Origin: Candidatus Eiseniibacteriota bacterium
GTDB lineage: Bacteria > Eisenbacteria > RBG-16-71-46 > JABDJR01
NCBI GenBank assembly: GCA_963783375.1
Contig: CAWANH010000003.1
Span: forward strand, 128,001 to 192,000
DNA length: 64,000 nucleotides
Reading direction: 5' to 3'
The notes under the pieces were generated by a model. That model made no database searches. It was not told the origin of the DNA and saw nothing but the letters and a program-made list of their open reading frames with translations. Shown here piece by piece: positions 24,621 through 29,278 of the stretch. Within the stretch, counting starts at the first letter, position 1. Every line of letters starts with the position of its first letter. Both the position numbers and the translations under genes were made by a program.

Positions 24621-25697
24621 CTACTCGGCTCCGGCGGTCAACGCCTCCCGGAGGGACTCCATCGCCCGCCCCCAGTACTCCTTCATGCGCTCGGCCTCGG
24701 CTTCGTCGGCGAGCTTCATGTGCTGGACCGTAACCTGGGACTTCCGGTGGCCCTTGGGGTAGAAGTCCACGCTCAACCGCGTCAGCCCGTCCTTCCAGAG
24801 GATCCGCATCGACTTGGGCTCGGTGACCGTGGTGAGGGTGATTCCGGGCTCGCCGAGCCACCGGTCGCGGACCGAGGCGTCGTTCCAGGCCGCGAAAAGG
24901 CGTTCCACCGGCACGTCCAGGGTAAGGCTCCGGCTGATCGAGAACCCCTCGGCGGTCTCGTGTTTCTTCCGGAGTCCCCGCGCCTGCTCGTAGCCCACGG
25001 TGACCATCTGGGACCACCATCCGGTGAGGCCGTGGGTCTCGGCGAGGTGGCGCGCCATCTCCCGGTGGCCGATCTCCGGGGCGCCGGCCCCTTCCAGGAT
25101 CTCGAACCACTGATTCCAGCCCTTGCCGGTGGCGCTTAGGACCGCTTCCTCGCCGATTCCCGCCACCCTGGGCTCGTCACGGACTTCGGGGGAGACGGGT
25201 GCGGCCGCCCCGGCGGTGGTTTCGGGCGGAGGCGGCGTGAGCACCGGTTCGGCGAAACGGGGCCGCTTGGATTCGTTCCGGGCGGTGGAGATCACGGGTT
25301 CGGCGAGGCCGGTCGGGGGCGACGGATGGGACGGGCCCGGCGCCTTGCCGGACTTTCGCCGGGCCACCTCTTTCCCCGTCGTCCTCTTCCGGGTCGCTTG
25401 TTTCTTGGCGGCAGGCTTCTTCTTCGCCGCCCCTTTCCCGGCGGTCTTCTTCTTGGCGGTCTTCTTTCGGGCGGCGGGTTTCCTGGCCCCGGCCTTCTTC
25501 TTCGAGGCCTTCTTCCTGGCCGGCGTTCGCTTCGCCGCTTTCTTCTTGGTGGTCTTCTTCTTGGCCGCCTTCTTCTTGGCTGTCTTCTTCTTGCCCGCTT
25601 GCTTCTTGGTCACTTTCTTCTTCGCGGGCTTCTTCTTGCCGGCCGTCTTCCGGGCCGTCTTCTTCTTCGATTTCTTCGTGGTCTTGTTGGCCATCAT
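24621..25697 (-). CDS. Histone-like Lys/Ala-rich region fused to DUF4287-like and SRPBCC/AHSA1-like domains
   Basis: About 115-aa KKA-rich N-terminus, ATGKGWNQWF..GWWSQMVTVGYE, then LFAAW..RWLG..VQHMKL..YW. Confidence 0.7.
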   Translation of the reverse strand: MMANKTTKKSKKKTARKTAGKKKPAKKKVTKKQAGKKKTAKKKAAKKKTTKKKAAKRTPARKKASKKKAGARKPAARKKTAKKKTAGKGAAKKKPAAKKQATRKRTTGKEVARRKSGKAPGPSHPSPPTGLAEPVISTARNESKRPRFAEPVLTPPPPETTAGAAAPVSPEVRDEPRVAGIGEEAVLSATGKGWNQWFEILEGAGAPEIGHREMARHLAETHGLTGWWSQMVTVGYEQARGLRKKHETAEGFSISRSLTLDVPVERLFAAWNDASVRDRWLGEPGITLTTVTEPKSMRILWKDGLTRLSVDFYPKGHRKSQVTVQHMKLADEAEAERMKEYWGRAMESLREALTAGAE

Positions 25698-25929
25698 CCG
25701 TCCTCGCCGGGAGCCCTGCGGCCGGGACGCTCCCGAACCGGTGAAACCTCACCCCGTCGCGACGTTTACAAGACTACCCTCACACCCCGTTCTTGTGAAA
25801 CCACCCTCGGGGGCGGAGCGCGGGAAGCCCGTCCGTGACGGGAGACCGGGGGGCGGCCGTCAGGGCCGGCCTGCCCCCGAGGGAGCGCCGAGCGAGGGGC
25901 ACCGGCTCCAGGCCGCGCGCCGCCCCGGA

Positions 25930-26853
25930 TCAGGGGAGCGCGCTCCGGCCGGCGAAGGAGCGGAGCAGTTTCAGCGCCTCGGGAGAGAGTCCCAGGCTGT
26001 CGTCGATTGCGTCGAGCTCGGACCGGCTCCCGTTTCCCCCCACGAACCCGTTCACCCGGGCCGCCGCGGTCGAGGCGGCGAAGTCCCGTTCGTCGGGATA
26101 CATGGCGTGGAACTCCCGCATGAGCCCCTTCACCTGGCGGAGCCAGTATTTCTGATGGTAGTCCTCGGCGGGGGTGAACCCTCCGGCGGCACGGATCTCG
26201 GTCCGCACCGTCTTCCCCAGCCGCCGGGCGATCTCGTCCCGCGTCTCCTCGGCCAGGCGCTTCTGCTTCTCATCGTGGTAGAAGACCGCCGCCTTGTATT
26301 GCTTGCTCCACGAACGCGCGGTCGGGTCGTGGCCGGCCCAGAAGACCTTCAGGAGTTCACGGTAGGAGATCCGCGACGGGTCGTACTCGATCTCGATCGA
26401 TTCCGAGTTGTCGCCCAGGCTGTGATAGGTCGGGTGCGCCTTGGTTCCCCCCGTGTAGCCCACGGTGGTGCGAACGACGCCGGGGAGACTCCCGAACCGG
26501 GAGTCGGGTCCCCAGAATCACCCCATGGCGAAGGTGGCCAGCTCCGTGCGCGCGGGAACCGCCCGGTCGATGGGCGGAAGCCCGGAGGCGCGGGCGCCTG
26601 GCCCCGCGGTCGTCGCATCCTGGATCGAGGTCATGGATGCCTGCTCCTTCGCTCCGTCGGGAGACGCGCAAGCCGCCCCCGGCGAGGCGCCGGCGAGGAG
26701 GCCTCGGGGGACCGCGCACGCCGTCCCGGACTCCGTGGCGTCGGCGCTTTCGGCCGGAGCGGGCTTCCGGCCCCAAAGGCCGAGAACCCCCACCGGCAGA
26801 AGAACGACGGCCAGGGTCGCCGCAAAGATCCGTCCACGAGTGCGATTGTACAT
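25930..26853 (-). CDS. msrA: Selenocysteine-containing peptide-methionine (S)-S-oxide reductase MsrA
   Basis: ORFs 26518-26853 and 25930-26463 are in one frame, separated by TGA at 26520-26518, giving ATFAMG-U-FWGPDSRFG..VGYTGG; AEDYHQKY present. Confidence 0.9.
26480..26515 (-). promoter_or_regulatory. Bacterial SECIS element
   Basis: Directly after UGA: CUGGGGA-CCC-GACUCCC(GGUUC)GGGAGUC-UCCCCGG; upper stem follows a 12-nt spacer after UGA; apical loop starts with G. Confidence 0.8.
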
Positions 26854-26902
26854 GAGGGCGCTCCTTCCCCGTCCGCGAACCCTGCGATGGAAATACCCCG
26901 GC

Positions 26903-27250
26903 CTATTCCGGACCTTCCCAGCCGACCCGCTCCAGGTCGACCCGACCCGAGGCGTCGAACCGGATCCCCTCCCGCTCCAGGATCTTCCGCTGGACCAGGC
27001 CGCCGTCGCCGGCGCCCCGGGGGCTCACCCGCCCCTGGGAGTTGATCACTCTCTGCCAAGGTACGTCGGAATCGCTCGGGAGTGACGCCATGGCGTAGCC
27101 CACCATGCGGGGGGTGCACCCCACGATGCGGGCGATCTGGCCGTAGGAAGCCACCTTGCCCCTGGGGATCAATCGCGCCACCGCGCGAATGCGCTCGTGG
27201 ATCGGGACCGCGACGGCCGGCTTCCGCCGGCGTTCAGCTCGCCGCGGCAT
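26903..27250 (-). CDS. Alkyltransferase-like protein (ATL/YbaZ, MGMT family)
   Basis: IPRGKVASYGQIA, RMVGYAM, PWQRV (Trp in place of the catalytic Cys of PCHR). Confidence 0.85.
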   Translation of the reverse strand: MPRRAERRRKPAVAVPIHERIRAVARLIPRGKVASYGQIARIVGCTPRMVGYAMASLPSDSDVPWQRVINSQGRVSPRGAGDGGLVQRKILEREGIRFDASGRVDLERVGWEGPE

Positions 27251-27334
27251 CGAGGCTCACCACCGGTTGGTCTCCCGTGATCCCGGCGCCGTGAAGGGTG
27301 ACCTCGAACGCGGGGACCGCCCGTGTACGCGCGC

Positions 27335-27844
27335 TCAGTACGCCGGGGCCTCCATCCCGAACTGCTCCCACTCCTCCTTGGATGGGCCGAACACCCCCGG
27401 CACCCGGGCTCCGGCCTGGCGGAGAAGCACGGTCATCTGCCCACGATGATGGATCTCGTGGTGGATGAAGGCGAGCAGGGTGGTTCCGCGGGGCCACCGC
27501 TGTCCGTACATGTCGTCGGTCTCGAGGAGGGTCGCGTCGGTCCACGCCCCCCGGATCGCGCCCATGAGCTCCCGGCTGGCTTCGTGGTATCCCTGCCGGA
27601 TGGCGGCGGCGGTGGCCGGCGGCGGGGAATGGGGATCCACCGACGAGATCGCGAGCCCGGTCCGGCTCATCATCTCGGGGATCGTGGCCACCAGGTGCCA
27701 GCCCAGCTGCCCGAGGGTGCGGTGCTCGTCGGTGACCGCCCGGCCCAGGTTTTCGTCGGTCAGGGCGGCCAGCACCCGCTCCGTTCCCGACGTGAGGATC
27801 TCGTAGGACTGCATGAAGTCGTCGATGGATCGGAACACGATCAT
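27335..27844 (-). CDS. DinB family protein
   Basis: TLGQLGWH and HEIHHRGQ.TV.LR motifs. Confidence 0.9.
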   Translation of the reverse strand: MIVFRSIDDFMQSYEILTSGTERVLAALTDENLGRAVTDEHRTLGQLGWHLVATIPEMMSRTGLAISSVDPHSPPPATAAAIRQGYHEASRELMGAIRGAWTDATLLETDDMYGQRWPRGTTLLAFIHHEIHHRGQMTVLLRQAGARVPGVFGPSKEEWEQFGMEAPAY

Positions 27845-27913
27845 CCTCCAGCCTGACGCCGCCGGGAAACCGGCGCTCTCCGGCGGCGCCCGAACAGTGG
27901 ACCGGGGAACGTA

Positions 27914-29278
27914 CTAGCGCCTCACCCGCTCCTCTTCCGAGGCCTCGGAGCCGGACCCCGAAGCTTCGGGTGGCTCCCCGGCGCCGTCCCCCGAAGCGGG
28001 CCGCACCGGCGGGTCGTTGATGAGATAGCGGAACTTGCGATCGAACTCCGCGGGCGGCATCCGTCCGATGGTGGCCAGGCGGGCCACCGACTTGGGATCC
28101 CCGAAGTCCGCGTCCTCGAGCCGGATCATGTAGTGGCGGGCGACCCGATAGGAGTCGCTGTCGATGTCCACCTCGCGGATCCGCGCCTTTCCGGTCTTCT
28201 CGTCCAGCATGTCGGCGAAGGAAATGGGAATCAACCGCCCCCGGTCGATGGTCACAATGGACCCGCTTCCGCCGGACAGGAGGTACATGACCGCGGCGTA
28301 ACCCAGATCCTGGGTGTACTCCAGGTCGAAGGGGATGGGGTCGGCGCACCGGAGTTCGTAGCCGATGTCCTTGTCGACGATGGTGACGTTGATGCCGCGC
28401 TCCTTGAGCCGGCGGCGCACCTCGTTCTTGAGCATCCGTCCCAGCTCGATCTCTCCGTACCGGATGTTCCCGTGGGAATCGCGTTCGATCTCGGCGTTCC
28501 GGGAAAGCTCCTCCGGATCCAGCCGCTCGGAGAGCCCTTCGGCCAGGACCGCGACCCCGTAGGGGCGCCCCATGGCCATGCGCTTGATCACCGAGCCCTC
28601 GAGGATGTCGGCCAGGGTGGCCAGGGAGATCTTCCGGTCGCGGAATTCCTCCCCGATCAGGGTGAGGGTGGCGCCCGCGGCCTTGCCGATCCCCAGGGCC
28701 AGGTGGCCGGCCTTCCGTCCCATGGAGACCAGGAAGTACCAGCGTGTGGTGGTCTGGGCGTCGACGATGATGGCCTGGGTGATTCCCACCCCGAAATGCC
28801 GCGCGGTCTCATAGCCGAAGGTGGGCATGTGGCCGGGGAGAGGAAGGTCGTTGTCGATGGTCTTGGGAACGTGCGCCACCTGGATCTGAGGCCCGCTCAG
28901 GCTGTCGATCATCATCGCGCTGGTGGCGGTGTCGTCGCCGCCGATGGTGACGAGGTAGTCCACTCCCAGCTCGCTCAGGGCATGCACGACGGCTTCCAGC
29001 TTTTCCTGGGCCTTGGTGGGATTGGCGCGGGAGGTCCGGAGATAGGAGCCGCCGTCGTAGTGGATGCGGGAAACGTCGTCGATGTGGAGCTCGGTATGGC
29101 GGCTGGAGTCCCCCTCCATGAGCCAGCTGAATCCGTCGTAGATACCGAGCACCTTGAGCCCGGAATTGATGGCCTGAATGGTCACCGATCGGATGACCCC
29201 GTTGATGCCGGGGGCGGGGCCGCCGCCCACCAGGATGGCCAGGGTCTTCCCACGATGGTCCGTGGAGTACTTGATCAC
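27914..29278 (-). CDS. pfp: Pyrophosphate-dependent 6-phosphofructokinase
   Basis: GGGPAPG, GGDDT and PKTIDND (the Asp/Lys pair diagnostic of PPi use), MGR, GYELR. Confidence 0.9.
   Translation of the reverse strand: MIKYSTDHRGKTLAILVGGGPAPGINGVIRSVTIQAINSGLKVLGIYDGFSWLMEGDSSRHTELHIDDVSRIHYDGGSYLRTSRANPTKAQEKLEAVVHALSELGVDYLVTIGGDDTATSAMMIDSLSGPQIQVAHVPKTIDNDLPLPGHMPTFGYETARHFGVGITQAIIVDAQTTTRWYFLVSMGRKAGHLALGIGKAAGATLTLIGEEFRDRKISLATLADILEGSVIKRMAMGRPYGVAVLAEGLSERLDPEELSRNAEIERDSHGNIRYGEIELGRMLKNEVRRRLKERGINVTIVDKDIGYELRCADPIPFDLEYTQDLGYAAVMYLLSGGSGSIVTIDRGRLIPISFADMLDEKTGKARIREVDIDSDSYRVARHYMIRLEDADFGDPKSVARLATIGRMPPAEFDRKFRYLINDPPVRPASGDGAGEPPEASGSGSEASEEERVRR

Follow-up and report, generated by a model that had tools for sequence, protein, structure and literature searches.

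[quoted passage not shown] The reading we prefer, with a probability of about 0.8, is that this Sec-MsrA gene has two products, a full-length one predicted to be exported or membrane-anchored and, likely, a cytosolic one that would begin at Met74. MsrA is already listed among known bacterial selenoprotein families (PMC13188914, PMC9312934), one that has been characterised experimentally (PMC13188914), and the protein matches the C. oremlandii enzyme (CoMsrA), so the core finding is a member of a known family. The export signal and the likely second start appear to be a variant that we have not found described, and in the literature covered (mostly open-access, main texts only) no account of an exported or two-start Sec-MsrA was found. 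The features of the gene are presented in Table 1.

Table 1. Features of the msrA locus, in window coordinates
Feature	Position	Strand	Basis
Shine-Dalgarno-like AAGGAG preceding Met1	26861..26866	-	sequence; duplex energy -6.3
msrA coding sequence, 307 aa from Met1	25930..26853	-	translation; terminal TGA 25932-25930
Hydrophobic segment, residues 9-27, predicted signal peptide or anchor	26773..26829	-	hydropathy 2.71 over 13 residues
Low-complexity linker with Cys46 and Cys62 (residues 31-92), predicted to be disordered	26578..26763	-	pLDDT, translation
Second in-frame ATG (Met74, 26634-26632) with AAGGAG (26649-26644)	26632..26649	-	Shine-Dalgarno duplex energy, homologues
MsrA catalytic domain PF01625, residues 106-243	26125..26538	-	E 1.1e-41
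In-frame TGA, predicted Sec112, at the catalytic Cys position	26518..26520	-	translation, homologue alignment
Bacterial SECIS-type hairpin	26480..26515	-	folding, conservation, bSECIS geometry
CoMsrA-type C-terminal helical domain	25933..26124	-	PF20939, CoMsrA alignment, TM-score 0.89

The initial annotation had described an MsrA with an in-frame UGA at the catalytic position which ORF callers split, and both points held; it did not mention the N-terminal signal or the second start. The reading frame contains a single internal TGA, codon 112, in the context A-M-G-U-F-W-G-P-D, and under translation table 11 it falls into an ORF of 111 aa and another of 177 aa, the latter without the catalytic motif. 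By profile search the read-through product exceeded the cut-offs of PF01625 (143 bits against 23.7) and TIGR00401 (121.6 bits against 108.1). Three segments of the translation, G-C/U-F-W, GYxGG and E-x-Y-H-Q, which we take to be the MsrA motifs, are invariant or nearly so across the homologue alignment. With respect to the helical domain, the PF20939 match (residues 260-292, 21.3 bits) lies slightly below its cut-off of 23.7, and sequence alignment to CoMsrA extends through residue 285. A match to NF041383, the VPGUxxT thioredoxin-like (seleno)protein type 2 family, covered residues 101-212 with 42 bits; the cut-off is 275 and the thioredoxin part is absent, and membership was rejected. No msrA other than this gene was found in a PF01625 search of its genome.

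A promoter scan at the gene returned no sigma-70 sites and no convincing terminator was found downstream of it. Upstream on the same strand (window 26903-29278) lie the gene of an Ogt-like DNA-binding protein, which ends 49 nt upstream of Met1, and genes for a DinB-family protein and a PPi-dependent phosphofructokinase. The downstream gene (window 24621-25697, minus strand) encodes a long Lys/Ala-rich, histone H1-like N-terminus followed by DUF4287 and AHSA1-like parts, the matches to the last two being under cut-off. Among the 89 of 154 neighbour ORFs that were scanned around msrA homologues, MsrB was seen three times and a DsbD-like protein once; there was no conserved partner, and no reductant gene was a conserved neighbour.

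The relationship to CoMsrA, to which the initial annotation had pointed, was borne out. In sequence as well as in fold comparisons, the best PDB matches were all CoMsrA (E 2e-49 by sequence), the enzyme of C. oremlandii OhILAs represented by entries 4LWJ-4LWM, 4U66 and 7C13 (PMC4333827, PMC4479559). Identity was 42-43%, and a predicted model of the present protein gave a TM-score of 0.89 over the CoMsrA chain. Both proteins share the G-U-F-W-G-P-D motif, a catalytic domain joined to an aligned C-terminal helical domain, and the lack of any Cys past Sec. CoMsrA is described as a protein of 209 aa with Sec at position 16, no Cys and an essential helical domain (PMC4333827). In contrast, 111 codons precede Sec in the gene analysed here, and these encode a hydrophobic signal and a two-Cys linker and include another in-frame ATG, preceded by a Shine-Dalgarno (SD) sequence. 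The word 'signal' does not occur in the text of one of the CoMsrA papers (PMC4479559).

The hairpin past the UGA, to which a bacterial SECIS layout had been attributed, was present as described. Its upper stem (26505-26487) carries, 19 nt from the UGA, a GGUUC loop (26498-26494), which the minimum free energy (MFE) fold closes to GUU by one additional G-C pair. The legend of Fig 2 in PMC13188914 sets limits for bacterial SECIS elements, namely a loop of 3-9 nt having G in its first two positions, an upper stem of 4-16 bp, a distance of 16-37 nt from the UGA and an MFE of -7.5 or lower. All values found here fall within them, with the GGUUC loop (GUU in the MFE fold), an upper stem of 7-8 bp, a spacing of 19-20 nt and -25.3 kcal/mol for the 45 nt past the UGA. 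Of 3000 random post-TGA 45-mers drawn from the same 69% GC genome, 1.2% folded with an energy as low. The 81 nt counted from the UGA folded with -44.1 kcal/mol (z = -3.34), and none of 200 shuffles was equally stable. The core pattern of the hairpin follows 25 of the 96,464 TGAs of the genome. An Rfam scan of window positions 25000-28000 returned no SECIS family and only four sub-threshold chance matches.

Conservation of the hairpin was compared between TGA copies and the 22 Cys copies having the helical-domain motif. Among the matches listed, the paired core with G at +21 was present in 43 of 45 TGA copies versus one of the 22 Cys copies; the codons under the upper stem read NCC in 45/45 versus 11/22, and the Gly codon there was GGG in 44/45 versus 2/22. 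Alignment columns 19 and 31 swap between U-A (19) and G-C (15) among the TGA copies listed, with a covariation score for these matches of 0.154; shuffling gave 0.083, and slid partners scored no higher than 0.103. Codons 112-126 are identical between this genome and a second genome of the genus (G002), whereas six other segments compared between the two are 89-97% identical. In the matches listed, 80% of the upper-stem cells are paired versus 59% of those in the lower stem, and pairs changed on both sides number only three, no more than in shuffles; since the structure was moreover taken from the query, the evidence for a SECIS element covers the upper stem. Conservation of the xRFG peptide encoded under the hairpin extends in part to Cys copies, so some of the stem pairing is imposed by the protein.

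An MsrA match was found in 35 of 41 genomes, this one included. Thirty loci were fetched and 29 parsed, of which three had TGA at the catalytic site (this genome, G001 and G002, all of the same genus) and 26 had Cys, the latter apparently ordinary MsrA or MsrBA that lack the helical domain. A scan of a genome collection gave 552 confirmed stretches; in the best 80 the catalytic codon was TGA in 41, Cys in 38 and cut off in one, a sample that is not unbiased since one search pattern contained Cys. Overall, the Cys/UGA pairing which had been proposed as a check was evident, with 45 TGA and 39 Cys codons at the catalytic site in 84 hits among the matches listed. The TGA copies listed come from Thermodesulfobacteriota, Chloroflexota, Nitrospirota, Bacillota, Actinomycetota, Planctomycetota, Synergistota and others. 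In 50 hand-chosen genomes from the best 80 of the 552 loci, selA was present in 39 of 40 with TGA (the miss being a 1.4-Mb assembly) versus 3 of 10 with Cys; the homologues are related, so such counts overstate independence. A quick tree of the listed homologues had eight Sec/Cys changes and may be consistent with a single origin of the Sec form. The contigs of 4 of 16 DNA runs included none from a close strain that spanned the codon by 31 nt in both directions, and gave no differing letter at 26518-26520. The helical-domain type also includes haloarchaeal Cys MsrAs (L107-L118, L121 and L122), which form one well-supported group and have no signals.

The genome carrying the gene (4.73 Mb, 97% complete) has the Sec trait that had been ascribed to this lineage, with selA, selB, selC and selD all found. 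The scores of selA (551 bits), selB (327 bits) and selD (390 bits) were all above curated cut-offs, and selD has an in-frame TGA of its own. The nearest named relatives of its SelA share 52-54% identity. The tRNA-Sec (68.5 bits, anticodon TCA) was the only tRNA with a TCA anticodon found in the genome. Release factor RF2 is present, so UGA is otherwise a stop and has not been globally reassigned. All five genomes of the same family that were tested contain selA. A further genome of the genus (G003, 98% complete) has selA and gave no match to this MsrA query.

With respect to other selenoproteins, a scan for motif plus hairpin was set aside, as its 682 matches were mostly spurious in this GC-rich genome. 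A coding-potential scan ranked the MsrA TGA 121st of 51,957 and yielded at least 10 further Sec candidates, namely SelD, a peroxiredoxin, a SelW-like protein, three UshA-like proteins, a TUGYCR redoxin, two thioredoxin-TPR proteins and a DsbA-like protein. One additional candidate (C28:2028943) was discarded, being an ordinary gene end with a new start behind it. An apparent signal was seen by inspection in 8 of the 11 candidates with MsrA included (7 of 10 without it), and on these predictions the selenoproteome of the organism looks mostly extracytoplasmic; exported bacterial selenoproteins as such are already known (bioRxiv 10.1101/2022.07.06.499078). As in msrA, the gene of the DsbA/FrnE-like protein with U-P-W-C (C29:23274, minus strand) combines a signal-like leader with a second ATG of strong SD (-10.2), 19 codons before its UGA. 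In a UshA-like P-C-G-U gene (C28:827464, with a duplicate on C25) the frame apparently shifts about 150 codons past the UGA, and the C-terminal part, which has haem-binding motifs, lies in another frame, through either an assembly error or a real break; this gene adjoins msrP on the opposite strand. C4, C25 and other small contigs duplicate stretches of large ones, so gene counts in the assembly may be doubled.

The form of MsrA that starts at Met1 is probably exported or membrane-anchored, judging from its N-terminus and those of its homologues. Residues 1-8 are basic, the predicted structure has a helix over residues 2-25, and a lipobox is absent from this copy. The linker that follows has pLDDT below 50 at residues 34-64 and 66-75, with predicted disorder to about residue 90. 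Signals in homologues were judged by hydropathy and a regex heuristic. An in-frame hydrophobic stretch upstream was found in 35 of the 45 TGA copies among the matches listed, as compared with 9 of 142 off-frame controls, and 15 of the 45 have a lipobox-like motif. It was found also in 7 of 26 Cys copies among those listed (a set drawn by a different rule from the 22 used for the hairpin), 14 of the 26 being haloarchaeal, none with a signal. Leaders are annotated in 23 of the 52 full-length Cys homologues among the best 120 database proteins. Two observations weigh on the other side. Between this genome and G002, codons 1-30 differ at two synonymous and four non-synonymous positions with no stop or frameshift, so the signal region shows no synonymous excess, which counts against export; and the genome has a periplasmic-type MsrP, which makes an exported MsrA less necessary. 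The only MsrB found (C28:616022-616366, duplicated on C4) is of the Cys type and has a lipobox-like signal and a Met-rich linker with two ATGs (SD -6.2 and -6.8).

The start at Met1 is plausible, though Met74 is preceded by an equally strong Shine-Dalgarno sequence (both AAGGAG, duplex energy -6.3). From Met74 the product would have 234 aa, no signal, no Cys and Sec at position 39. The ATG is kept in G002, and G001 has a comparable one 46 codons before Sec (SD -10.1). In 42 signal-bearing homologues among the matches listed, ATG made up 46 of 1539 linker codons, three times its frequency in the catalytic part (about 1%), and an SD energy of -7 or lower preceded 15 of the 46 linker ATGs versus 3 of 82 in the catalytic part. 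A linker ATG with SD of -5 or lower occurred in 19 of the 42 listed homologues, where permutation of positions confined to these linkers gave an expectation of 8.0 (p 0.0002), and in 14 of 33 versus 5.7 expected after removal of nine close kin. Such an ATG was found in 53 of 384 other signal-bearing genes of this organism, a control that comprises a single 69% GC genome with heuristic gene calls. Among the matches listed, 19 of 21 linker ATGs with a strong SD sit 15-38 codons before Sec, in the same zone as the ATG of signal-less Sec copies, which lies 31-40 codons before it.

On this evidence we give Met74 about an even chance of being used as a second start. The strongest competing account is an exported or anchored Sec-MsrA made from Met1 only, the Shine-Dalgarno before Met74 being left over from a signal-less ancestor or arising as a side effect of Lys and Glu codons in the linker. 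We regard it as a serious though less favoured possibility. Among the listed signal-bearing homologues, 23 of 42 lack a linker ATG with SD of -5 or lower, and the linkers are purine-rich, with a mean SD of -2.7 at codons other than ATG; SD strength is nonetheless tied to the ATG codons and not to the whole linker, and the second-start pattern recurs across phyla. Export of the entire product would moreover leave the cytoplasm without MsrA, as the gene is the sole PF01625 match in a nearly complete genome, for which two starts would supply both compartments. A precedent exists in Neisseria PilB (MsrA/B), an exported methionine sulfoxide reductase for which two forms from one gene were reported, the short one arising at an internal AUG (PMC2907840, citing Wu 2005; PMC6372556). 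That precedent is disputed: the short form was called inactive, and the later work in PMC6372556 did not observe the truncated cytoplasmic product, which favours use of Met1 only. As with PilB, the present gene is predicted to give two forms of an exported reductase. PilB is Cys-based, with fused thioredoxin and MsrB, whereas here a stand-alone Sec MsrA is encoded and both products would contain the whole catalytic unit. The Sec-MsrA family adds a sequence-level signal across phyla to the disputed two-form precedent.

Translation from Met74 alone, giving a cytosolic 234-aa enzyme like CoMsrA with the upstream open frame left untranslated, is unlikely. It would fit the equal SD strength at the two starts, the Cys-free product, as in CoMsrA (PMC4333827), and a third-position GC of 0.70 in codons 1-30 versus 0.89 in the catalytic part. 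The in-frame hydrophobic stretches of the TGA copies, many of them with a lipobox, and the leaders annotated in Cys homologues argue that the upstream frame is translated.

Slightly less probable again is a role of Cys46 and Cys62 as resolving residues on a flexible arm, which would make the long form a Sec/Cys/Cys enzyme recycled by thioredoxin. These are the only Cys of the protein, residues 74-307 having none, and they lie in a long linker predicted to be disordered. Both are kept in G002, one similar A-C-x-x-P occurs in G001, and a few distant homologues have linker Cys. By inspection of the matches listed, most homologues nevertheless have no linker Cys besides that of the lipobox, and the predicted model places neither residue confidently near the active site.

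Under the preferred reading, with an exported or anchored full-length form and a likely cytosolic one, SelB would bind the hairpin and bring Sec-tRNA to the UGA, as in the known bacterial pathway. By analogy with CoMsrA, Sec112 would attack methionine-S-sulfoxide, free Met and end oxidised, and the helical domain would keep the active site in shape. Since the catalytic part lacks a resolving Cys, an external thiol or selenol oxidoreductase would have to recycle Sec112. CoMsrA is recycled by glutaredoxin and not by thioredoxin (PMC4479559). Unlike that system, neither gshB nor a plain glutaredoxin was found in this genome: glutathione synthetase (PF02955) gave no match, and the sole PF00462 match is a cytosolic protein disulfide oxidoreductase (TIGR02187). 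A DsbD-like gene is present, scoring below the NCBIfam cut-off. The lack of glutathione synthetase, together with the DsbD-like gene and the apparently exported Sec-thioredoxins, makes a DsbD relay the likeliest route. Electrons would pass from the DsbD-like protein to the exported form by way of one of the four thioredoxin-fold Sec proteins that bear signals, in place of the glutathione/glutaredoxin route of C. oremlandii; we put this forward tentatively, at somewhat below even odds. DsbD is named as the electron source of PilB in the title of a paper cited in PMC6372556. In an actinomycete MAG (L085), two tandem Sec-MsrA genes enclose an msrB, and a DsbD-like gene lies downstream.

More speculatively, and with less confidence than in the relay itself, CoMsrA-type selenoenzymes may be mainly envelope proteins, many of their genes having two ribosome-binding sites ahead of a single UGA/SECIS for exported and cytosolic forms, with a glutathione-free DsbD/Sec-thioredoxin relay in the organism analysed here. 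If export and dual start are true, the characterised cytosolic, glutaredoxin-fed enzyme represents only part of the family, and selenium-based protein repair in the envelope is open to direct testing.

A nonsense mutation or assembly error (a pseudogene), or UGA read as Trp, is very improbable: W stands at the site in 14 database homologues, but two further genomes of the genus carry the same TGA, as do 41 other loci (best 80 of 552), the downstream frame is intact and conserved, RF2 is present, the sole TCA-anticodon tRNA found is tRNA-Sec, and Trp is unable to serve as the catalytic nucleophile. Those 14 cases presumably represent TGA translated as Trp. They belong to the best 120 database proteins, of which 54 start downstream of the catalytic motif and 52 have Cys, and the expectation that annotation pipelines would miscall the gene is thereby confirmed. 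The Sec-MsrA assignment corrects this annotation, over half of the top database relatives being truncated or having Trp at the catalytic site. The top database match (P0002) is itself a 177-aa stub, matching the G002 copy.
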